DNA from: Haliotis rufescens
Lineage: Eukaryota
Assembly: GCF_023055435.1 (NCBI RefSeq)
Contig: NW_025963779.1
Coordinates: forward strand, 13,764,001-13,828,000
Length of the DNA stretch: 64,000 nt
Direction: 5' to 3'
Positions 7,856 through 50,840 of this stretch are shown in pieces. A model generated the notes under the pieces. That model had not been told where the DNA came from and did no database searches. It was given only the letters and a program-made list of their open reading frames with translations. Both the position numbers and the translations under genes were made by a program. Position 1 is the stretch's first letter, and the number at the start of each line of letters is the position of its first letter.

Positions 7856-8174
7856 GGCCTCGTTCCTCAAAGCGATCTTAGCGCTACAGTCATCCTAAGA
7901 CTATGTTAAAGTATGGGGCCTGCTATCACCTTAGCGCTACAGTCATCCTAAGACTATGTTAAAGTATCGGGCCTACTATCACCTTAGCGCTACAGTCATC
8001 CTAAGACTATGTTAAAGTATGGGGCCTACTATCACCTTAGCGCTACAGTCATCCTAAGACTATGTTAAAGTATGGGGCCTACTATCACCTTAGCGCTACA
8101 GTCATCCTAAGACTATGTTAAAGTATGGGACCTACTATCACCTTAGCGCTAAGATTGCTTTGAGGAACGGGGCC
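7856..8174. mobile_element. PIF/Harbinger-like MITE containing a 5 x 53-bp tandem array
   Basis: ~30-bp TIR GGCC(T/C)CGTTCCTCAAAGC(G/A)ATCTTAGCGCTA; CAG TSD; single-unit relatives at ~31333-31445 and ~60539-60651. Confidence 0.75.
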
Positions 8175-9421
8175 CAGATCATTAGTAATAGGCCTTACGA
8201 AAGGCCTCGCGGTGACCTGGAGACCTTAATGTATTAGCCATTAGTGTCCCTTGGGTTATGCAGGAGGCTCCAGTGACTGCCCCGCCAAAGCCCATGGACA
8301 CAGCACACGTTTTCCCCTACCACTTGGAAGACAACTACAAATAAAATCATTTAGATTAGTATAAACCATTACGTGAAGTAGACTTTCTAGCTGCAAAGCG
8401 TTGCATTAGATCCCAGTACTCTGTGCTTCATAAAAAGTGATGAAACACTACCAAGCGAATAGCATACAATATTGATATTTGGCAAGTACTGCAAGTACAT
8501 TTAAGGTTGAAACATTTCATCATTTGTGGTTGCCATTGGTTTTGCATAACTTCAGTTCCCTTTCTTGAGATAAAATGCTACTGTATATGCATAATTTGTT
8601 TAACTGTAATATGTTCTGCAACTCATCAGATTATTGCTGTACACTCTTCAGTCGCGTTAATGAGTAAATTACGATCGCACGTTTTAGAACTCGCTGAAGA
8701 TAAACAATTTTGGTGTTTTGGTTTACCAACATTATGCAGATAGGAGAACAATGTTACTTATCTTGCCTTTGCATGCTTTTGTGACGGTGGCAACGATGGA
8801 GCAGGACTCTCAACTTTCGGCAAACACCTGGTAGAACTATTTGATAGTGAGTAACAAACTCGTGCTTGTGATATAGTCGGAATCATACAATGACCTAGTT
8901 CGAAACTGATTGTTCTTTGGCGTTGGCGGTTTACATTATGAATATGAAAAAAAGAAAGAAAAAACCCTCAATTGACACAGTCTATACATTTATTGAAGTG
9001 TCAACTATGATGATACAATCAGAGGCATCCACTGTACCTTAACAAATATGTTATTGTGCTCAATTGTCAATGCATTTTCATTGTATCAAGTTGAACGCTT
9101 AATGCAATAGTATAATCAATCACCAAAAACGTTCTGATCCAAAGGCCATGAAAAACGAAAGATAACAGTTTTCCATTTTTAAGGTGTTTGTTGTTAACAC
9201 TGCCCTCGGCAGATTTCAAGGTATATGGCGGTGGCCTGTTAATAGCCGAGTCTGGACCAGTCAGTCCAGTGATTGATCTATGCCGATGTATGTACGATTA
9301 CACACAGTCAATCAAGCCTGACCACCTGATCCCTGTGGTCGACTCTTATCACAAGCATAGGTTGCTGGGGACATGGATCATGTTATACTGTAGAATCACC
9401 TTCTTTAATATTTATACATCT

Positions 9422-9567: not shown

Positions 9568-12500
9568 CTGTCATTGAAGAGAATACGTACAATGTATATC
9601 TATTATGTTACACCTGAAACAAATCAACAAAAAGGTACTGTTATGTATGATTTATCTGTGTCATTATCTTGTCTCAATTGGATGCATGGCCGAGGGCAAA
9701 TAATTTCTTTCCCTACAAAAGATTATATTACCTATGAGTATCCCCATCGTCATGCTGGAGCAACCACTTATTGCTGAACCGAAGCCGATAGCCACAGCAT
9801 ACTTGTCTTCCCCTACCAGGTTGTGTATGACTGCAATGAGGGAGTGATAGAACCATGAAACACATACAATTTCATAAAAATCAAATCGTAGTTCTCGCTA
9901 CCGCTAAACAAAGATCTGAGGACGTCCCATGACAGGTCATGTCGGGGCCACCTTTCATACTGACCAATCAGAGCGTAGCTTACAAGATCAGGAAAGTGAC
10001 AGTCGGAATGTGTTTTCTCATCATGTAACCTCGAAAAGATTGACACGGGGTACTCCTGTCGACATTTACGGTATGTACGACTGATTCTATTAAAATCATC
10101 TCATATGTCATTTCAATGGGATAAATTTTGCATAGCCCGTGGGAACTACTGCCATTCAATCTCGGCCATCTATAAGACATTCCAGAATGTCCTTTTGTTC
10201 AGTTTTTAAAATTTGAATCGAGAACTTTGTTAAAATATTTTTTAAAGCGTAGTCTGGAATGTAGTCTGAAATTTAAGGGAAGTCGCCAGTTTGAAACTTG
10301 TGCTGCATGGAGGCTAGACCCCCTTAATTATGTGAAAACTTCAGGAATTCTGCATCTTTTATGACAGTTTATTCCATGTATAGAGTTAATTAAAACAGCA
10401 ATATAACGTATGTATTCTCAAATTGTCCTGCCGTGATATCCTTTGTAGTTTGGTCAATAGATAAAGATCGTCATTAGAAGAAGAGTCATGTGAGTCAAAG
10501 CACATGGTGTAAATGTCACATTACTAAAATACCTGTGTGACATACCCATAGGAAAACTGCCCACCATCCCGCCTGCACCTAATCCAAGAAGAGAAAAGCA
10601 GCCAACGATCATGCCATAAGTGTACGCCAAGGAAAGCGCAACAAGAGAGGCACTGGATAGTAACACTGACATGCAGAACACTTGGTAGGTCTTCACACCT
10701 GGGACCATCTGTATCAAGCCGACGAGAAATCGCATTGCAGCTCCCAGCCCATTAATCAGCAACAAAAACACCAGTCCTGTCTCGTATGACAGACCCTTAG
10801 ACATGCCAAAGTCCACTGCAGTGACGGAAGTTGAAGTTAATATTCCAAACCCTACCATGGCACACACTAAACAAGATCCATACATAGGATTTAAGATATG
10901 CTGATATTTGGACTTTTCTTTTTCATTTTTCGATGTTGTCTTTTCATGTTTGGCTGATAGTGTTGGTGATGCTTGGTGTGGCGACGTTACGAGTAGACAC
11001 GAAGATGTAATGTTCAATAAGCCACCGCTAGCAAGGAGAAGTGCACCTCTCCAACCATAAGTCTCCTTGAGTTCCTCCAAGACAATGGGGAAAACAATGC
11101 TCCCGACGCCTGCCGAGGAGGTCATAATTGACAGCGCCATTGATTTAGATCTTGCATCATGAAACGTATGCGACAGGGTGACAAGGGAACTCAGATACAC
11201 CATGCTGCATCCAAAACCTGACCATGAAAAACAGAGTGGACATTTTACGCAGGTACACAGACAATTACTATCCTGCATAGAACTTTATTAAGGTATGGAC
11301 CATGTAATATTCTTGGGGAGTTTCAATACCCAACACCTCTTTTACTGATTATTTTGATAGTTTAAGTGGAGTCATACAAGGTTGTATTATCATCCCCTTT
11401 TTATTTGCAATGTATATTTCAGAATTTCAATCCATGATAGAAGGTGCAGATGTAAGAGGTATGTTTATAGGCGTGGAATATTTGGAACTACTGTTATTAT
11501 AGTATGCTGATGATTTATGTATTTTTGATGACAGTCGTATTACAATGAAAGATTGACATTTTGACAAATATGGATTAGACAGAAATATAAGTTTTTCGAA
11601 AAGTTTGTCATTTAGGACATTATGAGAAGTGTTTTTTTATGGGGAGCTTCTAAAATATCATCTTATTACATGTTTAATTATTTAGGCATGATGTTTTCTA
11701 GGTTGTCGTAGACAGATTGTATCAAAAGCCAGTAAAGATCTGTTTTTTATTAAGAAATATTACAGCATAAATACCCAAATATTCCTGTAAATATGTTATT
11801 TTAGTTCTTAAATATATGTTAAATAAAGCCAATGTTGTTATTTTGGGCGGAGGTGTGGGGCTTCGAAAAAAGAGCTGTAATCGATAGATTTCATAATATA
11901 TTTTTGTAACTATTTTTTGGGTGTTGGTAAAGGTCCATGTAGTGTAGCTTTAGCTGGCTGTGGTAGACATGGATTTTATTTGGATTACTACCAAAAATGT
12001 GTAACTTGCAGATGTTAATTGTAATGAATGTTTGGCGATGGCTATCCCAAGCAATGTTACATACTTATTAAGACGTTAGATTCAACAGGAAGGAAGACAA
12101 GGGCATCTTGTGTCAGATAATTGTTATACACGTATGGTTTCGGATATGCATGGATTAGTCAAGATGTTGCAGATACTTTATGTTTTCTGTCGATATTCAG
12201 ACAGAAATTAGAAGACTGTCAAAAAAAAAAATTATGTTTAGTCGTATCAATGATTCAACATGACTTGCACATAAGAATATTAAGTCATTGCTGACTGTTG
12301 AATATTACGTTACAAATATCAATGTTAGGAACTAAAGAAAATATATATGTTTGTTGAGATTGTATGAACTGCCGTTGCGTTGTTAAATTAGATGAAAGAT
12401 GCTATAACTGTTCACCGAATTTGTAGGATGTGTAATACTAATAGCATGGAAGATTGACTCCATTTCATATTCGATTGCGAGGCATATGCGTCGCTGAGAA

Positions 12501-23006: not shown

Positions 23007-25467
23007 CGGTCCTTTCCCCACTATCCAATATCATAACGCGGTCCTTTCCCCAGTATCCAATATCATAAAGCGGTCCTTTCCCCAGTAACCAATATCATAA
23101 CGCGGTCCTTTCCCCAGTATCCAATATCATAACGCGGTCCTTTCCCAAGTATCCAATATCATAACGCGATCCTTTCCCCAGTATAAAATATCATAACGTG
23201 GTCCTTTCCCAGTATCCAATATCATAACGCGGTCATTTCCCCTGTATCCAATATATCATAACGCGGTCCTTTCCTCAGTATCCAATATCATAACGCGGTC
23301 CTTTCCCCAGTATCCAATATCATAACGCGGTCCTTTCCCAAGTATCGAATATCATAACGCGATCCTTTCCCCAGTATAAAATATCATAACGTGGTCCTTT
23401 CCCAGTATCCAATATCAAAACGCGGTCCTTTCCCCAGTATCCAATATCATAACGCGGTCCTTTCCCCAGTATCCAATATCATAACGTGGTCCTTTCCCCA
23501 GTATCCAATATCATAACGCGGTCCTTTCCCCAGTATCCAATATCATAACGCGGTCCTTTCCGAGTATCCAATATCATAATTCGGTCCTTTCCCCAGTATC
23601 CAATATATCATAACGCGGTCCTTTCCTCAGTATCCAATATCATAACGCAGGCCTTTCCCAGTATCCAATATCATAACGCGGTCCTTTCCCCAGTATCCAA
23701 TATTATAATGCGGTCCTTTCCCCAGTATCCAATATCATAACGCAGTCCTTTCCTCAATATGCAGTATCATAACGCGGTCCTTTCCTCACTATCCAGTATC
23801 ATTACGCGGTCCTTTCCCAGTATCCAATATCATAATGCGGTCCTTTTTTTCGGTATCCCATATCATAACGCGGTCCTTTCCCCAGTATCCAATATCATAA
23901 CACGGTCCTTTCCCCAGTATCCAATATCATAACGCAGTCCTTTCCCCACTATCCAATATCATAACGCGGTCATTTCCCAGTATCCAATATCATAACGCGG
24001 TCCTTTCCCCAGTATCCAATATCATAACGCAGTTCTTTCCTCAGTATCCTATATCATAACGCAGTCCTTTCCCCAGTATCCAATATCATAACGCGGTCCT
24101 TTTTTCAGTATCCAATATCATAATGCGGTCCTTTCCTCAGTATCCAATATCATAACACCGTCCTTTCCCCAGTATCCAATATCATAACGCGGTCCTTTCC
24201 CAGTATCCAGTATCATTACGCGGTCCTTTCCCAGTATCCAATATCATAATGCGGTCCTTTTTTTCGGTATCCCATATCATAACACGGTCCTATCCCCAGT
24301 ATCCAATATCATAACACGGTCCTTTCCCCAGTATCCAATATCATAACGCAGTCCTTTCCCCACTATCCAATATCATAACGCGGTCCTTTCCCAGAATCCA
24401 ATATCATAACGCGGTCCTTTCCCCAGTATCCAATATCATAACGCGGTTCTTTCCTCAGTATCCTATATCATAACGCAGTCCTTTCCCCAGTATCCAATAT
24501 CATAACGCGGTCCTTTTTTCAGTATCCAATATCATAATGCGGTCCTTTCCTCAGTATCCAATATCATAACACCGTCCTTTCCCCAGTATCCAATATCATA
24601 ACGCGGTCCTTTCCCAGTATCCAATATCATAACGCTGTCCTTTCCCAAGTAACCAATATCATAACGCGGTCCTTTCCCAAGTATCCAATATCATAACGCG
24701 GTCCTTTTTTTCAGTATCCCATATCATAACGCGGTCCTTTCCCAAGTAACAAATATCATAACGCGGTCCTTTCCCAAGTATCCAATATCATAACGCGGTC
24801 CTTTCCCCAGTATCCAATATCATAACGCGGTTCTTTCCCAAGAATCCAGTATCATAACGCGGTCCTTTCCCCAGTATCCAACATCAGAACGTGGTACTTT
24901 CCCCAGTATCCAATATCATAACGCGGTCCTTTCCCCAGTATCCAATATCATAACGCGGTTCTTTCCCCAGTATCCAATATCATAATGCGGTCCTTTCCCC
25001 AGTATCCAATATCATAACGCGGTCCTTTCCCCAGTATCCAATATCATAACGCGGCCCTTTCCCCACTATCTAATATCATAATGCGGTCCTTTCCCCAGTA
25101 TCCAATATCATAACGCGGTCCTTTCCCCAGTATCCAATATCATAACGCGGTCCTTTCCTCAATATCAAATATCATAACGCGGTCCTTTCCCAAGTATCCA
25201 ATATCATAACGCGGTCCTTTCCCCAGTATCCAATATCATAACGCGGTCCTTTCCCCACTATCTAATATCATAATGCGGTCCTTTCCCCAGTATCCAATAT
25301 CATAACGCGGTCCTTTCCCCAGTATCCAATATCATAACGCGGTCCTTTCCTCAATATCCAGTATCATAACGCGGTCCTTTCCCCAGTATCCAATATCATA
25401 ACGGGGTCCTTTCCCCAGTATCCAATATCATAACGCGGTCCTTTCCCCAGTATCCAATATCATAACG
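23007..25467 (+). repeat. 32-bp minisatellite, ~77 copies
   Basis: Unit CGGTCCTTTCCCCAGTATCCAATATCATAACG. Confidence 0.97.
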
Positions 25468-29714: not shown

Positions 29715-32579
29715 CGCGAAAGAGAGACAGGGGATATTTAATGTGTCAAGTGAAATATCATATTTCTCTCATCGAGTGAAGGGGGGAGAGATGATATTTT
29801 CACGAGGCACATGGAATATCATATTTATTATATACTGTTTGTGTGCCTGTCTACCGGAAAAGAAAATTATTTCATTACAAATGTAAAACCTTGAAACGTA
29901 AATTCTCCCCACCTAACACACAGGGACAATTCACCACCCCTTGCATTTGCGACTAAAAAGTAGTTTCGTATTTGCAAAATCTTAACATAAACCAAAGTAA
30001 CAAAAATTATTTAGGGTCACTAAAATTCTGTATTATACATACAATGTTTAGATATGAATATATAATAAATCAACTTAAAAAAAGCATACTTGGAAACTAC
30101 AAAGCCGCAGTTGGAAGCGAAAGTGTACATGCTTGTCAAGTAACAAAAATGGGGCTTTGCGAGACGAACAGTCTCGATTGACGAGTTAAGTGAGAAATTA
30201 ACAGTTTATAACGAACATTTTCAAGAGCATAACAAACGGCATGAAGCGATATTAACAAGATGAAGTTCATTTTCAATCTTACTCTGGTCTTAGATTTTGT
30301 GAAAGATGTAGCTTCCCTAGATCTAATTTTATATACGTAGTAGTTGAAAAGCTTGTACATAAATTTAATGTCAAGTTCTACTTTTCTTAACCCCCTCGCC
30401 GCTCTTCGATCTGAAATGCATAATTGGCATCTCAACGACTACAGGAGGTATTTACAGGTTGTTACAATTAGCAATCCCCGTCATTTGAATCGGCCAGATG
30501 TTGTATTTTTAGTAATGTATTGGGTATTGTTCGTCATACATGATGTGACACACTAATGCAATATTTTCGCCTTCGTTAACGGTACAAAAAAAACTAGAGA
30601 TGTAATGATGATTTCCCCCGATATTGTGCAGTCTTGATCAATTAGAATTGAACTAAAGGGTTTGGCAATGACACTATGGTCATGTAATTTCGTCTACCGT
30701 AAACAAACCATTTAATCGACTCAGAATTGATTAAGTATGTAACTAACTCTTCTGACAAACACTAAATGTATTTTGATATTAAAAAGTACAGAACATTGAA
30801 AACATCACAAGACTTCAAGAAGTCGGCGTGAGAGTTCTTGAGACAGATGTTGAGTTGGGGGCGTCCCGTATTTCCACAGCCCTGTAATACGGGATCTGGC
30901 GGGGGAGACTTACCGCCAGTCTATGTAACCCAACTCTCCCCTGGGTTCACGATTACTGGCACTTCTTTGTGGCTCCCGGCACACGGCACATAGGAGCCTT
31001 CCCCTACTCCATAAATGGTTATCTGTCAGTAGTTAAGGATAGCGCTTTGGCCCGTAAGTCAGCAGGAGTTATCTTCCCCTACTGGACGTGGTTCTGCGCA
31101 TGCTCGAAGAGGGACATGCTGGGTCATGCGTCACTTCCGGTTCCGGGAGGGGGAGAATGAATAACAAACACAAGGGTCGGGTCGGTTTGGAAAACCAGGG
31201 CTCAGACCAGGCACCGGAACGGACCAATCAGCGTGCAACGTTTTGGACCAATCAAAAGAGGGAACATTTCGAGCCACTCCCTGCATTCATACACCACGTC
31301 CATGTCTGTCCATGTCGGTTCACCTTTAGAATTCAGGCGTCCGTTCCACAACATGATCGTAGCGCTAAGGTGATTGCAACTCACATACTTTATCTTAGAC
31401 GGACGACTGTCATTGCGCTACATCTTGGATCGAAAACGAGGCTTGGAGAGCATAGCTCCATGCAGCGCGAGTCGCATCAGCTCATAGGGAACAGACAGCA
31501 TGTTGTGCATTTCTCTGATGGACATTTCAAACAAACAAAAAATGGTATCCTCTGTATCTAATACAGAAAATATTTCACATTTAATCATGAGGTCCAACTA
31601 AAATATGCCCGTAATACACTTGAATTAGCATTTTGCTGTCAGGATCCCGGATGTGAATCGAAAGGTGCATTTCGAGATACGTATTTCAGAAATAAATTGT
31701 TTTATCATAACCTCGTCGGCATATAGGTACAATGTGACAGTACATTCAATGACAGAGGTTTTGTATTGTAAATGAACCGCATAACATGAAATACGTCAGT
31801 GTACTTTTGCAAATTTGCTCAGTCAGTGTGTGGCTTGGCGAACTCGAGATCGTCGAACATGTTTATTTCACGTTTCATAGCGGTGTTTTGCTGCACAACG
31901 CACTATCGTTTTGCTATGAGTCCAGGTGACAAAAGACACTTTTTCTGCTATGAGTTTCATCTTAACATATTACGATGTAAATGAAATTAGTTCACAAAAT
32001 AATTCTTGTGTCAAAATAAATATTCAGAAGGGGCGATAACTCTATTCAGTGTGTACAATGACAGATGATACTTTACTTGTTCTTCAAACATCACTTACTT
32101 AACTGATTATTGCCGATTGAGATTGCACCGGGTACAACAAAAGTTATAATGTGTGAACTGTTTAAAATAAGTTAAAAGAAATCTAAAAATTGATAAATAT
32201 AAATAATGCATGAAATTAAAGAAATATAAGAATTGATACAACCACCAACTTCTTGAACACCCTCACCCAATCCTGTATGATGATAGGTAATTGTATATCA
32301 AAAGGAAGCTACTAATACATTTATCCTGAATATTTTGAAGATGTCTTGATCAGATATGAGTACAGTTAAAATAACAAAAGATAAAAAAGAATCAACTTCA
32401 ATTGGTAATCAAGCCAAGATAAAATATATGTATCGATACAAATTATGTTGATTGAACAATCTGGATTTCTTATATTTAACAAAGAATATCAAAACCGAAA
32501 TTTTCATGTCTTTATTTCTCACAATATAAGTTTTCAAAACTTAACATGGACCGGGTGTCTTTGTCGGTCAAAAGCACCT

Positions 32580-32743
32580 GGGGCGGTCGGGTAGACTGGT
32601 GGTTAAAGCGTTCGCTCGTCACGCCGAAGACCGGTGTTCGATTCCCCACAGGGGTACAATGTGTGAAGCCCATTTCCGGTGTCCCCCGCCGTGATATTGC
32701 TGGAATATTGCTAAAAGCGGCGTAAAACCATACTCACTCACTC
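32580..32743 (+). mobile_element. SINE family A (nested in the Polinton-like element)
   Basis: Family A sequence. Confidence 0.9.
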
Positions 32744-34739
32744 AAAAACCTAATTAAATTCCAGGAGAAAATAATTTTCTTGCTGGTAAACAAATGGTAC
32801 AATGTGCTTTTTGTAGTGTCTGATAAATATTGGCCATGTTGTTTTGTGAGTGAATAAGGTTTTTCACTTCCTCGTCCTATTTAAGTGAAATGTGACAGGA
32901 AGCACATTTGTTGATTGAAAAAAAATGTCTTTTCACTTCCTCGTCCTTTGACAGGACGCATATTGTAACCAGTGTATTATGACAGCAGAAAGCTCCTCCA
33001 GACATCCATCACAGGATACTAGTACTTCATTGTGTTGACTCGCTGGCCTGAAATGAATAATTCAATAATATTGTAATAATATTTCTACTTCAATAAAAAC
33101 ATTTTATAAACAATGCACATTCACCTTCTCTCAAAATAGTGCTTATGTAGAAAACAACATTCATCTCAAATAGAGAAATTTAAGGAAAGTTAATCACAGT
33201 GTGTAACATTACATGCAACTTTAGAACAATCTTGAAGGCATCAATTCATCTGATATGTCTAAAATTCAAGCAGTATATTCTGTGTAAACAGTAAACTCAA
33301 CAGATCAAACATCAATTTAATGACTGTACTACAGCTCTTTATATCAATGTCACACAGAAATGTACTCTTGTTTTAATGAAACACGTTTTGATATTTGTAT
33401 TACCGGTATGTATTTAATCATGACATACTTTGTTTAGTCTGACCATGCTGAAAACAAATACGATTTTTATTAAAATCAGGTGAAATATCACATTTTGTCA
33501 TCCCTACAGTCAGTCTGCCTCATTGACACTATGGTAAGGTGATGAAGATCACAAAGAAAATATAAGACTTGAATTTATTTTGTCAAATATAATGTTTATC
33601 TCTTCTTGTTGTTTACTAAAGTTGATATCTTGACTTGAAAATATTAACTTTGTCATATCACAAGATGAGATAAATTCATGCTATCATCGTTATTTGACAA
33701 GGAAAACAAATTTCTTCCATGTATATATATTTTTTTATATTTCTCGTTTTGAATGAATTATAAAAAGATATCACACCTCTTGACTTGATTGAAATAAACT
33801 AAAGTTCTAAAGATTGTTAACAATAGTAAAATATTACATCATAACAATATAATTATTGCAAAATGACACAGTAAGCACAACTATATTCTTACATATAAAT
33901 TGATATGATTAAAAATCAATAATACATGGCAATTGCTTACACAAAAGAAATCATTTTGTTTTTTAAAGTTTCAACATGTTTGTGGACATAAAGCCAGATG
34001 GGTTTCACAATTAAACAAAGAGGATAAATGAGTTATGATTGCAATACGCATTGGAATTAAAAATAATTCTGTTTATACTTTAAGTTTATAGTAATGTCAA
34101 TAAAAATTTATGCATTTAAAATATTTGAATACAAACTGTTAAAGAGTTATCTGTTTGTGTAAATTATATAAAGATCACATGTAGATTGAACATTTACTGG
34201 CCATTAATCAGTTGGGTTTTTGTTCATTTCATGACATAATTAATTTGGTACAGTAAAGTAAATATCATTTTGGTAGAAATATTGTTTACAAAATTGCAGA
34301 TCAAACTGTACTTTACTTCAAATACTTAAACACCTTTTATGTAATAATTCAGTTGAAATATTACACCTCATGGTATCTGATATGTCAACATTGAGAATCA
34401 AAATAACAACTTTCACAATATTGACAGCACAAGTAGATCTAGAGGTCTAATATTTTATTGGAATGCATTTGAGTCCATTACAATTTACATCAAATACGCA
34501 ACTGATGCAAAATTCTGATTTGTTACGATTGTAAATTCTCAATAGGTTACAATTTGATACATTATATCAACATATCAATTTAGTTAGTTTCTGACATATA
34601 TCTAGATATGGTCAAAAGGTCAATATTTCGACTTCAAATACAACCCGCAAATTTATTTAAACTCACAATAAATAGTTTGGCTTAATGGTGTGTAAACAAT
34701 GAATTCTTCTTTAAAAGATCTCAGTAGCATTTGTATTAA

Positions 34740-35391
34740 AGGGCAAGTTCACACGGAAATGAACCAATTTTTCTTGTACTTTTTCCACATTAAAAGTGTT
34801 AACATAGAAGTGTCATAGACAAAAATATAAAAACATCATACTTAATTAACATATTTTTTGCATTAAAACGATTTATATTTTTCACATTTACCAAGTGTTC
34901 TATTTCCATAACAAAAACACCATGAGTTATGCCCCTTGCAATATGACGTCATTGGTGCCAATTGATCAACATTATGACGTCATCATGCTTTGTTAGAGCC
35001 GCTTCACGTGGTGTAGGTACAGTTTTGTGATTCTAGCGTCTCAGATGCCAGCCAGAATTGTGTTATGCTGAGTCACTACTGCGCCGGAGTGTGTCGTAGG
35101 CCATGTTGTTTTACCGCAAACTTGTACTTGATATCTTTTGCGTTCAGAATAGACAGGGACCCAGTTGAATTGGCACCAATTACGTCATAATCTAAGGGGG
35201 ATAACTCAGGCCTGTTTAGCTCGAAAAACGAAGGCCTCATAACGGCATATCATTTTCACACTATTGTGAGCTTCCTACTTTCACTGTGAAAAAAATGAGT
35301 TTACATTTTCAAACACAGATATTAACTAATTCTAAAATTGCGTTTTGTTTAGAAAAAGAAAGAAAGTGATTTTTGCGTGTACACTTCCCCT
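34740..35391. mobile_element. Kolobok-like MITE
   Basis: TTAA TSD; TIR AGGGCAAGTTCACACG / CGTGTACACTTCCCCT. Confidence 0.7.
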
Positions 35392-36329
35392 TTAAGTCTG
35401 TTCAGCTACCATAAACTGCACTGGGAGTTACCAGGTGATCATGGATATTTTAAAATGAAATCACAACAGAACGGCCAGACTCAAATTTATATTGGTAAGG
35501 AGACCAGATAACAGTTGAATAGTTTGTCAATGATAAGAATAAGAACAATGTTCAATACTTACGATAAATGTACCGGGATGGTTAAATTGTCACAGTTTGT
35601 CCCGATTGCGTGCCTTGTTGACATCTCCATGTGTTTCATGTGCTATCCAGCCTTCACCTTCTGCTCTCCAAGCCTCGCTTTCAAACCGGAAGTAGCGAAG
35701 TGTGAAAAAAGTCTTGTGGAACGAGACCTTGCACCTCAAAGTTTACAATCAAGTCATAATACCCGATGACGTAATTTGTTGAATTTTGTTGCAAGATCCT
35801 TAGGCGATGTGACGTCAGCCAAGCAACAACGTTGCTGGGTCATCGACTGTGTAAACGCTCGTCTCAGTGATCTATCATCTCCACACGCAACCGGAAGTGA
35901 CGTCATCGTGGATGCGCACGCATGACCCAGCATGCCCTCTTCGCGCATGCGCAGAACCACTTCCGGTAGGGGGAGATAACTCCTGCTGATGCACGGGCAA
36001 AAGCACTTTCCTTAACTACTTCTGTCTTTATTTTGCCTCGTCAATGTGGAATTAACGTGAAAAGGAAGTCAACAGTTTGTGTACGAGCCAGACACCATAA
36101 AGGGAGACAATTGGAGGGGAGGTCACTCTTGTATGACAATAGTTCCGTCAAAGTGTTATGTTCACTGCGAGGAAAAAATCACTTTTTCCAACTTCGGAAA
36201 ACTCAGTCTTTCACTCAGAAGTATATGATAAATCATATAATGCCCTACAGGTACCAGTGATTGAGGACTAAATACTGAATACTGAACGTTATACTTCTAC
36301 TATTGGAAATAGCCATGGAAAATTAACTG

Positions 36330-36770
36330 GGTTTCGAAGTTGAAATTATTAATATATAAAATGGGATCTGGTTTTGTCTGTGAAGATCAGTCTATTGGCA
36401 GTATAGATTCTTTTGTTTCGGAGTTTATGGCTAGAGCACAATATATGCACCAACCTGAATGGCATGCCTCCCAATCGCTAGGCTCTAAAACGTTCTCATA
36501 CTTCTTATTTCAACCTATTTTGGGCGTTTAACCATATATTGGTGATATCACTATAAATAAGTTTCTTGTGGCTTTAGCAAGGTAAAGATGTGGCCCACAT
36601 CGTCTAAATATAGAAACCGTTAGATACGTGGGCATGCCAAGAAACCAAAGAATATGTGATATGTGTTACACAGTAGCTATGTTGAAAGTGAATACCATTA
36701 TAAATAAATGGCTGTAGCACTGTTTGCAACATGTAATGGGCCGGCGGCCTATACTTCTTGAATAAATGAT
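36330..36770 (+). mobile_element. LINE 3'-end fragment
   Basis: Similar to the 3' parts of the LINE fragments above; ends atgggccggcggcctatacttcttgaataaa. Confidence 0.45.
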
Positions 36771-37535
36771 GAGAATAAGGACTGAATACTTGTAATCACG
36801 CGTTGATAAAACTGTTTACAATGATCCATTCACATATTTTCCACCACTATTGTGCCTTTTACGCCCAATAGAATCTGTTTCGGCGGATAATGGAGACTGC
36901 TATTCCGGGGCCTTGCCGTTTTACATTGTAATTTGTTATATCAAAATATTTTTTAAGTCAACAGAAATAGACCAAAATCGACTACTCTCATGTTTGTAAT
37001 TTTTTTTAATCAAAACTGTTAATATAAGCATGCTCACACTCTACTTTGAAGCTTGTTTCATAATCAGTGATTTAGAATTCAAAGGTAACAAATCGCATAC
37101 CAGAAACATTCATATTCTCCTTCTGAATAGAATGAGAATATGTACAATGTTTCTGGTATGCGATTGGTTGCCTTTGGATTTCTAGGTCACTGATTATGAA
37201 ACAAGCTTCAAGAAGAATGAACATTCTTACCATTTTTTCATATGAGCATATCTCCATATATCACATATACGACACCTATGACATCAAAATATACCATTTA
37301 TGTAAACATCGTCCATTATTAAAGCATTCACAAAATCTAACATTCATTGTTGTTAACCAGTGTTTCCTTTGTAGGCATCAATCCAGAGAACGCCACATAT
37401 CGAGTCATTAATAATCAGAATATTGGCTTTATCCTATTTCCTTCACTTGCATCAATTCCTACATGAGCTCACTGTGTAAAGTCCATTCCTCGTAATACTC
37501 ATTCTAAATGCCAACAACTGTTCGATTATCACGTA

Positions 37536-38055: not shown

Positions 38056-39153
38056 TCACATACATGTGCTTTCGTACTTCGGATAGTGTGTGTATGGCTT
38101 GACAGTGAGCAAATTGTTACACGAACGTTCAATATGGTTCACGCCGTTCCCCTCTTCTGTCGATCTTGTTCGGTCACTGATTTTGGACGCTCCGGGAAGC
38201 ACATTGTCCACGTGCATATTGTCTGGAGACAGTTGCGTTGGTTGACGCCAGAAGCAGAGGGTTTTCTTGTACCCTTCCCTAAAGCTGCGGTTCATGAGAC
38301 CGTAGAGGAACCAGTTAACACAGGAGTTGGTAAAGGAGGTGTATGAACAGGCGATGTGGACGGTAGCGGGCCATGTGTCGTCTCTGTCAGCAATGGTAGT
38401 GATCATGTAGGGGCTCATGAGTGCCGCGAAACAGAGGAACACGGCAAACAGTGTCTTGATGAGAGATATCTCAGCAGGCTTGGGGGTTCTGTTAGACGGC
38501 AACCCTGTCTGTCTGATCCTATTTTTGGCGTTCCTGACGTAGCGGTAGATGTAGAAGTTACAGATGAAGATGATGATGGCTGGAGCGGCGATGCTGCCGA
38601 GGAGGAGAAAAAGAGTGTAGCCGAAGTTAGCTGTTCGGTCATATCCGCAGTAGTGCAACTTCCGGTCATACCGGAAGCGGCCCCAGCCAACGAGAGGTGG
38701 TAGCGTCATGAGTGCTGCAACCACCCAGATACAAACACAGATTGTAATGGTTGTGTGTTTCGTGAAGACACGGCGGTATGTATCGCTGTGGCAAATGTTG
38801 AGGTAGCGGTTTATGGAGATAACGGTGAGGGTGAGGAGAGATGCAACGTAGGCGCACACAATAAGGAACCCGTTAAAGACACAGTGCCCTGGTCCAGCAA
38901 CGGAGTATCTTCCTGTCATAAGATCCACCAGGAGATAAGACACAACGTATCCTAGAATGATCAAGTCGGCCACGGCAAGATTGACGATGTAGATGCCGTG
39001 AAGGGTTCGGAGCACGCGATGGCTTGCCACAGTGACAATGATGAGGAGATTGCCAAACGTACCCATGACGACGTAGAAGATACCGATAATGATAAAAATG
39101 ATCCTAGCTTCTTGACTAATTTCGAATCCGACGTAAGGATCTGTTGGCGTCAT
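38056..39153 (-). CDS. Rhodopsin-family (class A) 7TM GPCR, melatonin-receptor-like (NRY type), intronless CDS
   Basis: 365-aa ORF with seven hydrophobic segments; GNLLII (TM1), NLAVAD (TM2), INRYLNICH (TM3), W in TM4, ECL2 Cys, NSCVNWFLYG (TM7), helix 8 FREGY. Confidence 0.93.
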   Translation of the reverse strand: MTPTDPYVGFEISQEARIIFIIIGIFYVVMGTFGNLLIIVTVASHRVLRTLHGIYIVNLAVADLIILGYVVSYLLVDLMTGRYSVAGPGHCVFNGFLIVCAYVASLLTLTVISINRYLNICHSDTYRRVFTKHTTITICVCIWVVAALMTLPPLVGWGRFRYDRKLHYCGYDRTANFGYTLFLLLGSIAAPAIIIFICNFYIYRYVRNAKNRIRQTGLPSNRTPKPAEISLIKTLFAVFLCFAALMSPYMITTIADRDDTWPATVHIACSYTSFTNSCVNWFLYGLMNRSFREGYKKTLCFWRQPTQLSPDNMHVDNVLPGASKISDRTRSTEEGNGVNHIERSCNNLLTVKPYTHYPKYESTCM

Positions 39154-40164
39154 GTTGACGGAGGAGTAAGCCTATCAGGAATCTGTAACAATATACTTTG
39201 GTATTAGATGTCAGAACATGTTGAAACAAAACAAAGGACAGCCAGGCTGCCGTTAACAACTGGTTGTATGATGTCGGGTAGGTTAGCCAATAAAGAAGAA
39301 TTGTTAAAGGCTTTACATAATATTCTTAATAAACATCATGGACACACTGATCATAGGTTATTTTCGTACAATTCTGTCTAATCAAGCTTTTGAAGTTTGA
39401 ATATTGATTGCCGTTATATCGGAACAACAGGACAAGTTAGAGTTTTAATAAATGAATTTATGCTCAAACATTTTAATCAGTTGGTAACAAGTGTGTTGAG
39501 AAGTAATTTGAAGCACCTCAAATGCGGATGTGTGTTATCCTTCACACAAAAACTATGCATAGACACACAATACTCAGACCGACAGAAAGACAACTTAATC
39601 ACTGGCCCAAAATATAGTCATAAAAAGGTTTACCTGCATGGGCTTATTGCCGTATGTAACTCTCATAGAGAGAAAAAAAATACAATTCTCTATTTTATTA
39701 ACACTGAACTATACTAGCTTAAATTATAAATAATAATTTCAAAATTTGCGGACTTCATTAAGTTTCAAGTCTTTGAAAGGCAATCCAGCTTGCTTCCATT
39801 TGTCAATGCCATTTCCATTCTATTACCTGTCAGTGCTAAATATCCCCAGCCTCACGATTGCCCACTGTCCATTGCCTCGTATCAATCAGTGATAATTTAA
39901 GTCCTGGCCTCCAGCTGTCCGTCGCTATCACCTGTCAGCGCGAATTAACTGTTAAGTGTTCGCTTCCATTTGTCCATTGTTAATCACCTATTGGCGCCAA
40001 TGTACTGCTGGCTTCCCGTGTGAAGTTCCACCTTTGTTATCTGATTACCTTTGTTGTTCTTACAGGTATGTTTTCTGCCTGCGACAGAAGCGATCGTTAA
40101 ACTCCAAAACTGCCTGTCTGTCACAACATTTGTTCACCTGATGAACGTTGTGTTCCTCATAGTA

Positions 40165-41540
40165 CATTTAGGTAAACATATTCGTATATCTGCCATTGTC
40201 AGTCATATGTTTCAATTTCCAACATCTAAAGTGAGGAAAACACATTCTCCTATATCTGCCAATTTCAGTCAAATGTTTTTATTTCCTACATCTAAATTTA
40301 GATAAACATATTCGTATATCTGCAATTGTCAGCCATATGTTTCAATTTCCCACATCTAAAGTGAGGAAAACACATTCTCCTATATCTGCCAATTTCAGTC
40401 AAATGTTTTAATTTCCTACATCTAAATTTAGATAAACATATTCGTATATCTGCCATTGTCAGTCATATGTTTCAATTTCCCACATCTAAAGTGAGGAAAA
40501 CACAATCTCCTATATCTGCCAATTTCAGTCAAATGTTTTAATTTCCTACATCTAAATTTAGATAAACATATTCGTATATCTGCCATTGTCAGCCATATGT
40601 TTCAATTTCCCACATCTAAAGTGAGGAAAACACATTCTCCTATATCTGCCAATTTCAGTCAAATGTTTTAATTTCCTACATCTAAATTTAGATACACATA
40701 TTCGTATATCTGCCATTGTCAGTCATATGTTTCAATTTGACACATCTGAAGTTTGACAAACACATTCTCCTATATCTGCCAATTTCAGTCAAATGTTTTT
40801 ATTTCCTACATCTAAATTTAGATAAACATATTCGTATATCTGCCATTGTCAGTCTATGTTTCAATTTCCCACATCTAAAGTGAGGAAAACACATTCTCCT
40901 ATATCTGCCAATTTCAGTCAAATGTTTTAATTTCCTACATCTAAATTTAGATAAACATATTCGTATATCTGCCATTGTCAGTCATATGTTTCAATTTGAC
41001 ACATCTGAAGTTTGACAAACACATTCTCCTATATCTGCCAATTTCAGTTAAATGTTTTTATTTCCTACATCTAAATTTAGATAAACATATTCGTATATCT
41101 GCAATTGTCAGCCATATGTTTCAATTTCCCACATCTAAAGTGAGGAAAACACATTCTCCTATATCTGCCAATTTCAGTCAAATGTTTTAATTTCCTACAT
41201 CTAAAATTAGGTAAACATAATCGTATATCTGCCATTGTCAGCCATATGTTTCAATTTGACACATCCAAAGTGAGGAAAACACATTCTCCTCTATCTGCCA
41301 ATTTCCGTCAAATGTTTTAATTTCCTACATCTAAATTTAGGTAAACATATTCTTATATCTGCCATTGTCAGTCATATGTTTCAATTTGACACATCTGAAG
41401 TTAGGAAAACACATTCTCCCATATCTGCCAATTTCAGTCAAATGTTTTAATTTTTTACATCTAAATTTAGGTAAACATATTCTTATATCTGCTAATTTAA
41501 GTCATATGTTTAAATTCTGATATCTAAATTTAGATACATA
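40165..41540 (+). repeat. 130-bp tandem repeat (dimer of two related ~65-bp subunits), ~10.5 copies
   Basis: Period 130 (40174, 40304, 40434, 40564); both halves contain TATATCTGCCA..TCAG..A.ATGTTT..ATTTCC.ACATCTAAA. Confidence 0.95.
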
Positions 41541-42559: not shown

Positions 42560-45500
42560 CAGTGAGACAGTGAGACAGTGAGACAGTGAGTCAGAGAGTC
42601 AGAGAGCCTGTAAGCAACTATGGAAGATGGATTCAGGATGTAAACCTCTTTGTGATGAGGATCACAACGTTTCGGAGTATATACTTACTCCTGCATCGGG
42701 TTAATGATTCTAGCTCACCTGATGAAGGAGTAAGTATATACTCCGAAAGCCAGCAAGCCATTGAGCCATTGAGCCAGTAAGACAATTTGCCAGTCAGCCA
42801 GTGAGTCAGCAAGCCAGTGTGACAGTAAGTCAGTTGGACTGTTGGACAGTAAGCCAGTGAACCATTGAGTCAGTGTGACAGTAAGCCAGCGTGACAGTAA
42901 GACAGTGTGACAGTGAGTCAGTGTGACTGTAAGCCAGTGTGACAGGAGGACAGTGTGACAGTGAGCCAGTAAGCCAGTGTGACAGTGAGTCAGTGTGACT
43001 GTAAGCCAGTGTGACAGTAGGACAGTGTGATAGTGAGTCAATGTGACAGTGAGCCAGTGTGACAGTAAGCCAGTGTGACAGTAAGCTAGTGTGACAGTGA
43101 GTCAGTGTGACTGTAAGTCAGTGGGACTGCTGGACAGTAAACCTATGAGTCAGAGAGCAAGTGTGACAGCAAGATAGTGTGACAGTGTGTCATTAAGACA
43201 GTGTGACAGTAAGTCAGTGTGACTGTAAGTCAATGAGGCTGTTGGACAGTAAGCCAGTGAACCAGTGAGACAGTGTGACTGTAAGCCAGTGTGACAGTAA
43301 GCAAGTGAGCCTGTGTGCCAGTGAGTCAGTGAGGCAGTGTGATAGTAAGCTAGCGTGACAGTAAGCCAGTGTGACAGTCAGCCAGTGTGACAGTGAGCTA
43401 GTGAATACGTGTGGCAGTAAGTCAGTGTGACAGTAAGCCAGTGTGACTGTAAGCCAGTGTGACAGTAAGCAAGTGAGCCTGCGTGCCAGTGAGTCAGTGA
43501 GGCAGTGTCATAGTAAGCTAATGTGACAGTAAGCCAGTGTGACAGTTAGCCAGTGAGTCAGTGAGTCAGTGTGACAGTCAGCCAGTGTGACAGTGAGCTA
43601 GTGAATACGTGTGGCAGTAAGTCAGTGTGACAGTAAGCAAGCGAGCCTGTGTGACAGTGAGTCAGTGTGATAGTTACCTAGGGTGACAGTCAGCCAATGA
43701 GTCAGTGAACAGGTGAAAGTAAGCCAGTGTGACAGTGAGCCAGTGAGCCATCGTGACAGTAAACTAGTGTGGCAGTGAGTCAGTGAGCCAGTGTGACAGT
43801 AAGCCAGAGTGATAGTCAGCCAGTGTTACAGTAAGCTACCGAGACAGTGAGTCATTGAGCCAGTGTGACAGTATGCTAGTGTGACAGTGAGTCAGTGAAC
43901 CAGTGTGACAGTAAGCCAGTGTGACAGTAAGCCAGTGTTACAGTAAGTCAGTGTGACAGTGATTCAGTGAACAAGTGTGACAGTGAGTCAGAGTGACAGT
44001 AAGCAAGTGTGACTGTGAATCAGTGAGGCAGTGTGACAGTAAGTCAGTTTGACAGTGAGCCCGTGTGCCAGTAGGCCAGTGGAACTTAAAGTCAGTGGGA
44101 CTGCTGGACAGTAAACCAGTGAACCAGTGAGTCAGTGAGCCAGTGTGACAGTGAGTCAGTGTGACAGTAAGCTAGTGTGACAGTGAGTCAGTGAACAAGT
44201 GTGACAGTGAGTCAGTGTGACACAAAGCCAGTGTGACAGTGAGCTAGCGTGACAGTGAGCCAATAAGTCAGTGAACAGGTGTGACAGTAAGCCAGTGTGA
44301 CAGTGAGTCAGTGAGCCAGTGTGACATTAAGCCAGTGTAACAATGACTCAGTGAGTCAGTAAGCCAGTATGCCAGTGAGCCAGTAAGTCAGTATGCCAGT
44401 GAGCTCGTGAACCAGTAAGCCAGTAAGTCAGTATGCCAATGAACCTGTGAACCAGTAAGCCAGTATGCCAGTGACTCCGTGAACCAGTAAGCCAGTAAGT
44501 CAGTATGCCAATGAACCTGTGAACCAGTAAGTCAGTATGCCAGTGACTCCGTGAACCAGTAAGCCAGTATGCCAATGAACCTGTGAACCAGTAAGCCAGT
44601 GACTCCATGAACCACTAAGCCAGTAAGTCAGTATGCCAGTGAGCCAGTAAGCCAGTATGCAAGTGAGCCCGCGTACCAACAAACCAGTAAGACAGTAAGC
44701 GAGTGAGCCAGTATGCCAGTGAGCCCATGTACCAGTAAGCCAGTAAGTCAGTTTGCCAGTGAGCCCGTGTACCAGTAAGCCAGTAAGTCAGTATGCCAGT
44801 GAGCCAGTAAGCAAAAATGTCAGTGAGCCAGTAAGCCAGTATGCCAGTGAGCCAATAAGCAAGTAAGTCAGTAAGCGAGTGATCCAGTATGCCAGTGAAC
44901 CCGTGAACCAACAAGCCAGTGAGCCAGTATGCCAGGAAGGCAGTGAGCCAATGAACCAGTAAGCCAGTAAGCCAGTGAGCCCGTGAACCAGTTAGCAGGT
45001 AAGTCAGTGAGCCAGTATGCAAGTGAGCCCTTAAGACCAGTAAGCCAGTGATCCAGTAAGTCAGTAAGCCAGTGAACCCGTGAACCAACAAGCCAGTGAG
45101 CCAGTGGGACAGTAAGCCAGTTAGTCAGTGAGCCAGTACGTCAGTGAGCTCGTGAACGAACAAGCAAGTAAGCCAGTAGGAGAGTTAGCCAGTGAGTCAG
45201 TGAGCCCGTGGACCAGTAAGCCAGTGAGCCAGTATGCCAGTGAATCCGTGAACCAGTAATTTAGGAAGCTAGTGAGCCAGTATGCCAGTGAACCCGTAAA
45301 GCAACAAGCCAGTAAGTCAGTAGGGCAGTAAGCCAGTGTACCAGGAAGTCAGTAAGCCAGTATGCCAGTGAGCCCGTGAACCAGTAAGCCAGTAAGTCAG
45401 TAAGCGAGTGAGCCAGTAAGCAAGTAAGCCAGTGAGGCCGTGAACCAGTACGTCAGTAAGCCAGTAAGCCAGTGAGACCGTGAACCAGTGAGTCAGTGAG

Positions 45501-46025
45501 CCAGTGAGTCAGCATGACAGTGAGTTGGTGTGACAGTAAGCAAGTGTGACTGTAAGCCAGTGTGACAGCGAGCCAATGAGACAGTGAGCCAGTGGGACAG
45601 TAAGCCAATGTGACGGTGTGTCAGTGTGACAGTGAGCCAGTAAGCCAGTGAGCCAGTGTGACAGTAAGTCAGTGTGATAGTAAGCTAGCGTGACAGTGAG
45701 CCAATAAGTCAGTGAACAGATGTGACAGTAAGCCCGTACGCCAGTGAGCCTGTGAACAAGTACGCCAATAAGCGAGTGAGACAGTAAGCCAGTAAGTCAG
45801 TGAGACCGTGAACCGGTAAGTCAGTAAGTCATTGAGCCAGAAATTCAATGAACCAATAAGTCAGTGAGCCAGTAAGCCAGTGAACCAGTAAGTCAGTAAG
45901 TGAGTGAGCCAGTAAGCCAGTGAGCTCGTGAACCAGTAAGCCCGTAAGCCAGTGAGCCCGTGAACCAACAAGCCAGTAAGCCAGTGAGCCCGTGAACCAG
46001 TTGACTAGTGGGCCAGTGGGCCGTG
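42560..46025 (+). repeat. Complex octamer-word satellite
   Basis: Shuffled 8-mers CAGTGTGA, CAGTAAGC, CAGTGAGT, CAGTGAGC, CAGTAAGT, CAGTATGC, CCGTGAAC. Confidence 0.92.
42662..42750. ncRNA. Inverted pair of minimal hammerhead ribozyme motifs (Penelope-like terminal repeat remnant)
   Basis: Plus strand CTGATGA-A-GGAGTA(agtata)TACTCC-GAAA at 42719-42748; inverted copy 42670-42700 with 2 mismatches, continuing GAAACGTTGTG. Confidence 0.7.
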
Positions 46026-46167
46026 AGTTTAGTTCACGTAGTTTTGCGATGTACTGTAGCGGTGGTCGTAAACATTTCCCGCTTTAAAGTATACTACATT
46101 GCTCGTTAAAGGAAATATTAGAACTTAACCGGAAAAGCACATTTCCGGAATATAACTTTATACAAGA

Positions 46168-47760
46168 CAGCTCACAGCTCATGGTTAATGACTCACAGCT
46201 CACAGGTCATGGCTTACGACTCACAGCCCACAGGTCATGGTTAATGACTCACAGCTCACAGGTCATGGCTTACGACTCACAGCCCACAGGTCATGGTTAA
46301 TGACTCACAGCTCACAGGTCATGGCTTACGACTCACAGCCCACAGGTCATGGTTAATGACTCACAGCTCACAGGTCATGGTTAATGACTCACAGTTCACA
46401 GGTCATGGCTAACGACTCACAGGTCATGTCTTACGACTCACAGCTCATGGCTTACGACTCAAAGCTCACAGGTCATGGCTTACGACTCACAGCCCACAGG
46501 TCATGGCTTACGACTCACAGCCCACAGGTCATGGTTAATGACTCACAGCTTACAGGTCAAGGCTTACGACTCACAGCTCACAGGTCATGGCTTACGACTC
46601 ACAGCTCACAGGTCTTGGTTAATTACCCACAGCTCACAGGTCATGGCTTACGACTCACAGCTCACAGGTCATGGCTTACGACTCACAGCTCACAGGTCAT
46701 GGCTTACGACTCACAGCCCACAGGTCATGGTTAATGACTCACAGCTTACAGGTCAAGGCTTACGACTCACAGCTCACAGGTCATGGCTTGCGACTCACAG
46801 CTCACAGGTCATGGCTAACGACTCACAGCTCACAGGTCATGGATTACGACTCACAGCTCACAGGTCATGGCTTACAACTCACAGATCACAGGTCATGGCT
46901 TACAACTCACAGCTCACATGTCATGGCTTACGACTCACAGCTCACAGGTCATGGCTTACGACTCACAGCTCACAGGTCATGGCTTACGACTAAAAAAAAT
47001 CTCAGGTCATGGCTTACGACTCACAGCTCACAGGTCATGGCTTACGACTCACAGATAACAGGTCATGGCTTACGACTCACAGATCACAGGTCATGGTTAA
47101 TGGCTCACAGCTCACAGGTCATGGCTTACGACTCACAGCCCACAGGTCATGGCTTACGACTCACAGCTCACAGGTCATGGCTTACGACTCACAGCCCACA
47201 GGTCATGGTTAATGACTCACAGCTTACAGGGAATGGCTTACGACTCACAGCTTACAGGTCATGGCTTGCGACTCACAGCTCACAGGTCATGGCTAACGAC
47301 TCACAGCTCACAGGTCGTGGATTACGACTCACAGCTCACAGGTCATGGTTAATGACTCACAGCCCACAGGTCATGGTTAATTACCCACAGCTCACAGGTC
47401 ATGGCTTACGACTCACAGCTCACAGGTCATGGCTAACGACTCACAGCTCACAGGTCATGGATTACGACTCACAGCTCACAGGTCATGGTTAATGACTCAC
47501 AGCCCACAGGTCATGGTTAATTACCCACAGCTCACAGGTCATGGCTTACAACTCACAGATCACAGGTCATGGCTTACAACTCACAGCTCACAGGTCATGG
47601 CTTACGACTCACCGCTCACAGGTCATGGCTTACGACTCACAGCTCAAGGTCATGGCTTACGACTCACAGCTCACAGGTCATGGCTTACGACTAAAAAAAA
47701 TCTCAGGTCATGGCTTACAACTCACAGCTCACAGGTCATGGCTTACGACTCACAGCTCAC
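46168..47760 (+). repeat. 28-bp minisatellite, ~57 copies
   Basis: Unit ACTCACAGCTCACAGGTCATGGCTTACG. Confidence 0.97.
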
Positions 47761-47789
47761 AAATGTTGCATGTTGAATGTATTTCAAAG

Positions 47790-48960: not shown

Positions 48961-50109
48961 GATGCAATTCCCAATTTTGCCTTGTACCATATGTTTCCGT
49001 GTTTTTTTCAGGTGAACAATTGACTTGCCTTTGCATGGGTTTGTGACCGGAGCCATCCAGAAGGGCAGGACACCTTTTCGCGAACAACTGGTATTATTCA
49101 CTATTTGATAGTAATTCACAAACACATGCTCATGATATAGTCGGAATCGTACAATCGACTCTTTCTTATGAAAATGGAACGGATTTTGTCGCTTTTATTT
49201 ACGACGCTCACAGATCATGGCTTACTTGTCACATCTTACATGTTATGGCTCACGCAGACATTCAGAACTACCAATTATGTATTCAAACTTTCAAAGACTC
49301 ACCGAGTAGCAGTAGTAGGTGTGGGTCAGATCGTACACGAGACACCTATCCGCCTCGCCGGGCTGGTGAAACTTAAGTCAGCGGCGGTGCTAACAAACTG
49401 CCACACTCCATGCCACGTGCGTGTCGCTCGTCAACACGGAGCTGATGTGAGGTGACTGTTGGTTGGATTACAAGTCGTTACAATGTTTCTGTATCAATCA
49501 TTCTCATATGTAATTGCACAGTACATCTGGATAATGACCCGAGCGCCTAACACACCCATCAATGTATAGATAGTTAATTGATTTCATATTGATCTCCGGA
49601 TCTTATTTGATGAAACACACACACCGATTGAGGATTTTCTTATTGGACCCATCCTATTTAACAATGCTGGATCCGCACTTGCTTTCTGGACTCATGCTTG
49701 TCCTGTTTTTTCGATATAAAGACAATAATTATTCATAAACCAGTTCAGTCACATTTGAAGCAATGGTTTTCACATATTAAAAAGATTGGAAGCTAATAAC
49801 ACGTCATAAGTATGAAAGCGCAGTAAGTTCAACCAAACTGACACTGGGCGGTTCTAGGAAACAGAACACCACGAGATTTCTTCCCGGAATGACTATATGC
49901 ATATCAGTGTTCTGGTCATGATATCGATCTGTGATGCTTGGATGCAGAGACTGAGGGTCGATGTCGTGACATGGGGCTCTATTTGTGCAGGATGCATAAT
50001 GCATCACAGGTGCGTCATATGAACGCTTTGGGCAGAGATGTGACACAGCTTAATGCAAAGTAAATTTGACGACATGGTTTACATGAGAGACAAATACATC
50101 AGACACAGG

Positions 50110-50840
50110 AACCTGCGTATTCCTCACAATTGAGTGTCACCAGAGGTTGCTGTCTGAACCTGCGTATTCCTCACGATTTGAGTGTCACCAGAGGCTGCTG
50201 TCTGAACCTGCGTATTCCTCACGATTTGAGTGTCACCAGAGGCTGCTGTCTGAACCTGCGTATTCCTCACGATTTGAGTGTCACCAGAGGTTGCTGTCTG
50301 AACCTGCGTATTCCTCACGATTTGAGTGTCACCAGAGGCTGCTGTCTGAACCTGCGTATTCCTCACGATTTGAGTGTCACCAGAGGCTGCTGTCTGAACC
50401 TGCGTATTCCTCACGATTTGAGTGTCACCAGAGGTTGCTGTCTGAACCTGCGTATTCCTCACGATTTGAGTGTCACCAGAGGTCGCTGTCTGAACCTGCG
50501 TTTTCCACACGATTTGAGTGTCACCAGAGGTCGCTGTCTGAACCGGTGTATTCCTCACGATTTGAGTGTCACCAGAGGTCGCTGTCTGAACCGGTGTATT
50601 CCTCACGATTTGAGTGTCACCAGAGGTTGCTGTCTGACCCGCGTATTCCTCACGATTTGAGTGTCACCGAGGTTGTTGTCTGAACCTGCGTATTCCTCAC
50701 AATTGAGAGTCATCAGAGGTCGCTGTCTGAAACTGCGTTTTCCTAACGATTTGACTCTCACCAGAGGTCGCTGTCTGAACCGGTGTTTTCCACACGATTT
50801 TAGCGTCACTAGAGGTCGCTGTCTGTACCTGCGTATTCCT
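50110..50840 (+). repeat. 48-bp minisatellite, ~15 copies
   Basis: Unit AACCTGCGTATTCCTCACGATTTGAGTGTCACCAGAGG(T/C)TGCTGTCTG. Confidence 0.96.

Follow-up and report, generated by a model that had tools for sequence, protein, structure and literature searches.

Within a 64,000-nucleotide stretch of the Haliotis rufescens genome (contig NW_025963779.1, positions 13,764,001 to 13,828,000; hereafter the window, numbered from its first letter), we found a gene-less insertion that has the ends of a Polinton/Maverick virus-like transposon and spans 4993 bp between its outer termini. It is best explained as a set of nested mobile elements, the outermost of which would be a multi-copy, non-autonomous, Polinton-ended element of ~0.7 kb that depends for its movement on a full-size Polinton at another genomic site; we give this reading a probability of roughly 0.6. 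The 5 kb probably do not form a single unit, because a ~4.3-kb inner repeat differs from the ends in its depth profile, has an inverted repeat of its own and splits a MITE (miniature inverted-repeat transposable element) lying within the outer shell.

Termini and target-site duplication

[quoted passage not shown] The hexamer TCTGTC abuts both termini as a target-site duplication (TSD), which is exact only at length 6 (lengths 4-11 tested); the chance agreement of two fixed 6-mers is ~3e-4. Inverted repeats of more than 100 bp starting with AGTAGT and flanked by an exact 6-bp duplication were what an earlier reading of the bare sequence (the original prediction) had reported. The outer insertion with its Polinton-type ends is real, and it is extremely improbable that its ends came together by chance or through separate insertions, considering the E value of the 104-bp repeat and the exact duplication at both termini. 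Among the 27 pairs of Maverick-type end motifs in the window, a TSD or inverted repeat was found in one, the 31028/36020 pair, and no larger enclosing pair was detected among them.

An additional 17-bp inverted match (31129-31145 with 35886-35902), offset by an indel, is weak alone (E 0.19), and the TIRs fold no better than shuffled sequences (z 0.95 and -1.06). The TIRs are ~10% diverged from each other; therefore, the insertion would probably be old if they started out identical. An 11-base word of the left flank (30998-31008) recurs in the left TIR (31073-31083); it was seen by eye, was not returned by blastn at E 0.5 and is probably a chance recurrence.

Coding content

The interior has a G+C content of 33%, and its longest stop-to-stop frame is 167 amino acids (31058-31561), with every other frame below 100, in agreement with the AT-rich interior lacking long open reading frames that had been described. 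The 167-amino-acid frame was rejected as a gene, since it has no Pfam match and spans three different pieces. A Pfam scan of all six frames, with stops replaced by X, gave no significant match across the element (best E 0.11); the same read-through recovered the neighboring G protein-coupled receptor (GPCR) at E 7e-42, and old gene relics with frameshifts could escape it. Neither Rfam nor ARAGORN gave any hit within the element, and Pfam detected no Polinton gene in 5 kb of left flank and 4 kb of right flank, where its only hits were the GPCR and one weak match (E 0.005).

These results bear on the possibility that a single autonomous Polinton was stripped of its genes by an internal deletion at this site, leaving a remnant that was never mobile as such. 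The 10% divergence of the TIRs would allow the copy to be old, 96% of vertebrate Maverick loci are degraded fossils (PMC8097293), and the depth of the ends described below could stem from full-length relatives that share them. However, the six-frame Pfam scan revealed no gene remnant, and contigs 88-89% alike either join the left arm of the shell to the MITE or stop where the MITE starts and therefore point to further copies arranged in this short way. In-place loss of genes is thus quite improbable, and the proposal of a hollowed-out endogenous virus found no support, since no viral gene remnant appeared in that scan.

A MITE split by an inner repeat

Between the two arms of the outer shell lies a MITE that we take to be of the PIF/Harbinger family. 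It is interrupted by ~4.3 kb of sequence, one of the features that speak for a separate inner element. Two intact relatives are present in the window, at about 7855-8175 and 60541-60651; the first carries 5.2 tandem units of 53 bp, and the core of the second is short and unlike it. The left part of the split copy tracks the intact ones to ~31424 (agreeing with the 60.6-kb copy at 16 of 22 positions and, ungapped, with the 7.9-kb copy at 10 of 22), and its missing right end sits 4.3 kb away, directly past the inner repeat, where 35714-35731 is identical to each intact copy at 15 of 18 positions. The probability of finding the key 10-mer of this right end within 60 bases by chance is ~4e-5. A MITE complete at about 31444 was rejected, since the bases directly after the left part agree with the intact copies at just 9-10 of 18 positions, versus 15 of 18 at the displaced end.

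The ends of the inner element lie within 31423-31427 and 35710-35716, for a length of ~4.3 kb, or ~3.5 kb without the two insertions that it carries itself. Its subterminal inverted repeat is exact over 16 bp, and the longest in 100 shuffles was 14 bp (0/100 above 14). A different delimitation, as a 37-bp TIR from 31416, was rejected because it has no flanking duplication and its bases belong to the PIF-like MITE.

Contig depth across sequencing runs

Part of 30000-37000 is present in 18 of the 24 sequencing runs listed, which come from six studies and have three organism labels, and of which X1 may stem from the source of the window itself; contigs of four of the 18 (X1, X5, X13, and X15) were aligned at 85% likeness. 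Depths were summed over contigs and normalized, run by run, to that of a single flank contig, giving a relative profile and no copy number, and the interior median was taken over 13 bins, excluding those of the SINE (short interspersed nuclear element), the TTAA-flanked MITE, and the junctions. The contig listing is dominated by the SINE (15 joints listed and 1179 more; 24 loose ends listed and 5097 more).

The left-end bin (31033-31243) stands at 44, 42, 42, and 43x in X1, X5, X13, and X15, whereas the interior median is 401, 148, 1568, and 324x, i.e., 3.5-37 times deeper. The interior varies tenfold between runs, versus 1.0-1.4-fold for the end bins; the tenfold variation suggests recent bursts or tandem arrays of the inner repeat. 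The right-end bin, at 264-370x, extends over 76 bases of the repetitive flank, and contigs of both ends are probably counted in it. One X1 contig (record 1; 88% alike) extends from 31163 across the MITE as far as 31422, where its last 20 letters are unaligned, and hints at a paralogue that leaves the window's sequence at the inner-repeat junction; an X13 contig (record 9), 89% alike, covers 31171-31336. Single contigs of the inner repeat (31455-35674; X5 records 27 and 30) were found at ~50 times single-copy depth; therefore, groups of near-identical copies of it exist.

The SINE and the TTAA-flanked MITE, presumably Kolobok-like, both have empty forms in other copies of the inner repeat: SINE-empty contigs join 32575 to 32748 in three of the four runs, among the joints listed, and MITE-empty contigs join 34735 to 35392 in all four. 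Two relatives of the SINE match Rfam tRNA. The three nested insertions that had been named (PIF-like MITE, SINE, and Kolobok-like MITE) all exist, but the splitting of the first and the separate ~4.3-kb repeat had been missed. The TTAA MITE reaches 4,450-17,000x in X1, X5, and X15 and 1,500-2,000x in X13, the level of the inner repeat around it; free copies of it seem plentiful in organisms A and C and few in organism B.

The two flanks (30400-31021 and 36021-36307) are repetitive as well, with depths of 20-153x on the left and 1,130-1,610x in the bin 36097-36307; the element is thus surrounded by other repeats, and there may be paralogous empty sites. No empty-site joint with a single TSD copy was present among the 15 joints listed, and the 24 loose ends listed included no flank or TSD of another copy of the outer element.

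One unit or several

A different explanation is that all ~5 kb (~4.2 kb if the SINE and the TTAA MITE are subtracted) move together, as a composite mini-Polinton that has spread along with the cargo nested in it. A single TSD encloses everything, and Polinton-related variants with long interspersed nuclear element (LINE) cargo and without polB have been reported from butterflies (bioRxiv 2025.02.07.637071). However, a unit of this kind is at odds with the excess and the between-run variation of the interior depth, with the inverted repeat that the interior contains and the MITE that it interrupts, and with the paralogous contig that departs from the window's sequence at the junction; we consider it unlikely. 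The "mini-Polinton mobilised in trans" of the original prediction survives in part: the ends are best read as those of a non-autonomous derivative mobilized in trans, but a 5-kb unit is unsupported, the ~4.3 kb behaving as an independent, more abundant repeat.

Several observations weigh against the nested arrangement that we prefer. The ratio of interior to right-end depth is 0.5 in X5 and 0.9 in X15, so that in two of four runs the right end is no shallower than the interior, and many interior copies could therefore sit inside such ends. The 20 unaligned letters of the X1 contig are not displayed, and the outer element was seen with both ends in one copy only, with no second TSD, autonomous partner, or empty site. 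The bases that follow the left part of the MITE give, on their own, a weak gapped match to the MITE end. As for the Helentron-type origin suggested below for the inner repeat, the hairpins to be expected (a short inverted repeat next to the 5' subterminal repeat and a 3' stem-loop) appear as partial stems, whose folding does not surpass that of shuffled sequences (z -0.34 and -0.33), and a 5-bp direct repeat, TCTTG, is present at 31423 and 35712, although Helentrons should make none. The boundary is ambiguous, and an insertion without duplication is also compatible with the intact MITE copies.

Arms of the outer shell

Without the inner repeat, the outer shell measures ~0.7 kb with the PIF-like MITE and ~0.6 kb without it. 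Both of its arms are GC-rich, and an NRF1-like palindrome is located inside the left TIR. The CCAAT, ETS-like, NRF1-like, and TGACGTCA motifs of the shell are putative promoter-like elements. The bin over the right arm (35675-35885) is unexpectedly deep, at 2569-5798x single-contig depth, owing either to a shared end of the inner family or to another repeat. The right arm may thus hold a further high-copy piece, in which case the shell could be smaller still.

Table 1. Features of the nested insertion (window positions)
Feature	Position	Strand	Basis
Left TSD copy, TCTGTC	31022..31027	none	
Left TIR of outer element, starts (AGT)2	31028..31131	+	104-column inverted match to right TIR
Left arm of outer element, GC-rich (52%), two putative CCAAT boxes and ETS-like motif	31132..31333	+	Contigs 88-89% alike span it in X1 and X13
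PIF/Harbinger-like MITE, left part, broken within its right inverted repeat	31334..31424	+	Homology to intact copies
Nested non-coding high-copy element	31425..35710	none	Depth 148-1568x, own inverted repeat, no significant Pfam match
Left subterminal inverted repeat of inner element, 16 bp exact	31437..31452	+	
tRNA-derived SINE	32579..32744	+	At least 5 near-full-length relatives elsewhere in window
652-bp MITE, TTAA on both flanks, imperfect TIRs (13 of first 16 bases)	34740..35391	none	
Right subterminal inverted repeat of inner element	35662..35677	-	
PIF-like MITE, displaced right end	35711..35731	+	Homology to intact copies
Right arm of outer element, two TGACGTCA palindromes and putative ETS-like motif	35732..35917	+	
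Right TIR of outer element, finishes (ACT)2	35918..36020	-	104-column inverted match to left TIR
Right TSD copy, TCTGTC	36021..36026	none	

Proposed origin and significance

We infer the following order of events. A PIF-like MITE would have entered a Polinton-ended progenitor of ~0.6 kb, and the resulting ~0.7-kb unit would then have spread, this copy of it inserting at TCTGTC. Afterwards, an unrelated high-copy repeat of ~4.3 kb, tentatively Helentron-associated and carrying the SINE and the TTAA MITE, would have landed in the right end of the MITE. For the movement of the shell, a full-size Polinton would supply the retroviral-type integrase, which would recognize the ends and make a 6-bp staggered cut, and protein-primed copying, perhaps by the protein-primed polymerase of the helper, would make use of the short terminal repeats. 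Movement of Polintons by excision, protein-primed copying, and packaging has been deduced from their gene content and has had little direct test. The steps proposed here follow established Polinton biology (PMC6431247), and a nematode preprint states that Polintons have been characterized mainly in silico (bioRxiv 2023.08.22.554363).

It is possible, although we hold this only tentatively and at less than even odds, that the shell represents a family of MITE-sized (0.6-0.7 kb) Polinton parasites, for which ~100-bp ends and short promoter-like arms suffice for integrase-driven spread to tens of sites. Such a family would reveal which cis signals are minimally required for Polinton transposition, since very small elements inserting with clean ends and 6-bp TSDs would mark the bases needed by the integrase and the polymerase, and it would speak against a genome-length virion being a necessary stage of integration. 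A single, old, and heavily invaded copy is a lead and not proof, and it illustrates that the apparent size of a "mini-Polinton" can be inflated by nested repeats.

Genomic setting

The window is animal DNA, as indicated by an intronless GPCR, frames of a major facilitator superfamily transporter and of a Tc1/mariner-like element, SINEs, and satellites; its SINE and MITEs may be molluscan. The rhodopsin-family GPCR frame (38056-39171, minus strand; 7tm_1, E 8e-43) ends 2 kb from the right end of the element. The transporter frame, of 276 amino acids, is located at 10454-11284 on the minus strand (E 3e-16), and the plus-strand frame at 58289-59113, with helix-turn-helix and weak DDE_3 matches, is a piece of a Tc1/mariner-like transposase. 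At 37046-37211 there is a 166-bp near-perfect palindrome (86%), probably a foldback MITE. Large tandem arrays occupy 23007-25467, 40166-41516, 42748-46027, 46167-47761, 50109-50840, and 63126-63995, with periods of 32, 130, 8, 28, 48, and 37 bp, respectively.

Searches of other collections and of the literature

The pattern of the outer end had no match in two scans of viral_contigs; a further scan of that collection gave 19 matches, none of which extended past the pattern (27-41 of 104 positions identical, with no inverted partner). In metagenome_contigs there were 13 matches, none extending past 27 bases, and two scans of the prokaryotic genome_contigs gave none. The inner-repeat pattern was absent from viral_contigs. 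A SINE pattern used as a control was also absent from viral_contigs, and therefore the blanks for the outer ends in the viral collection say little; animal DNA is scarce in the viral, metagenome, and prokaryote collections.

In the paper listings searched, which cover neither subscription papers nor Repbase, we found no account of this family or of a MITE-sized Polinton derivative. Mavericks are present across the mollusc genomes surveyed (PMC10294476), and mollusc pPolB proteins have been listed (bioRxiv 2023.08.22.554363). Tlr1 is sometimes termed non-autonomous (PMC5499653), Polinton-N1A_NV has a capsid gene (PMC11296320), and in Anolis no non-autonomous Polinton copies are apparent (PMC3014272).

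Comparison with known elements

The inner repeat is possibly a Helentron-type (HINE-like) element; this is our best guess, and we leave its class open. Like HINE/DINE-1 (PMC4067079) and the oyster Cg_HINE (PMC7492417), it is non-coding and high copy, has subterminal inverted repeats with partial repeats beside them, and shows T/A runs at its boundaries, the right subterminal repeat lying ~35 bases from the end. Its inverted repeat, however, is 16 bp long, versus the 11-15 bp of the published HINE definition (PMC4067079, PMC7492417), where insertion is described as occurring at TT with no target duplication. It also differs in a frequent, not universal, HINE trait, a microsatellite or tandem array inside, as Tandem Repeats Finder (33 rows for the window) reported none within 31028-36020, and no Rep/helicase partner of it was seen.

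The ends of the outer element are those of Polintons/Mavericks. In the vertebrate set of Barreat and Katzourakis, the commonest end motif is (AGT)2//(ACT)2, with (AG)3//(CT)3 also listed, the TSD is 6 bp, and the TIRs measure 46-1447 bp (PMC8097293), which agrees with the earlier use of AGT termini plus a 6-bp TSD as the Polinton/Maverick signature; the element has (AGT)2//(ACT)2 termini, a 104-bp TIR within this range, and a perfect 6-bp TSD, in one copy. Alternatively, the shell could be a MITE of a non-Polinton DDE transposon with a 6-bp TSD that happens to start with AGTAGT, given that the Polinton assignment draws on 6 + 6 terminal bases and one TSD with no coding partner, and that no related end appeared in the viral, metagenome, or prokaryote collections. 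Nevertheless, those collections are poor in animal DNA, as noted above, a doubled AGT is among the end motifs given for Mavericks, and the other eukaryotic group with a 6-bp TSD that was checked, IS3EU/GingerRoot, shares the TSD and belongs to the retroviral-type integrase family but has termini TA..TA or TG..CA (PMC10045372), not the AG..CT found here. We regard a non-Polinton origin as distinctly unlikely.

Unlike autonomous Polintons, which are 12.7-24.6 kb long in the vertebrate set (PMC8097293) or about 13-25 kb (bioRxiv 2023.08.22.554363) and encode pPolB and an RVE integrase "by definition" (PMC5499653), the outer element measures 5 kb overall and ~0.7 kb without the inner repeat, and no gene for pPolB, an integrase, an ATPase, a protease, or a capsid protein was found in it. 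Lacking the first two, it is not an autonomous Polinton and at most a derivative of one. Most likely, it is a real, small non-autonomous Polinton derivative inflated by nested repeats.

Among named elements, we compared it with Polinton-1N1_DR. This element, named in zebrafish and used there as an alternative start site, likewise has Polinton-type ends without the core genes and is presumed to be moved in trans, and the promoter-like motifs of the outer shell echo its start site (PMC9341505). The two are likened by description only, they come from different host groups, and the unit inferred here is MITE-sized. Non-autonomous Polinton names are already in print; by Repbase usage, the "N" in Polinton-1N1_DR itself denotes a non-autonomous element.

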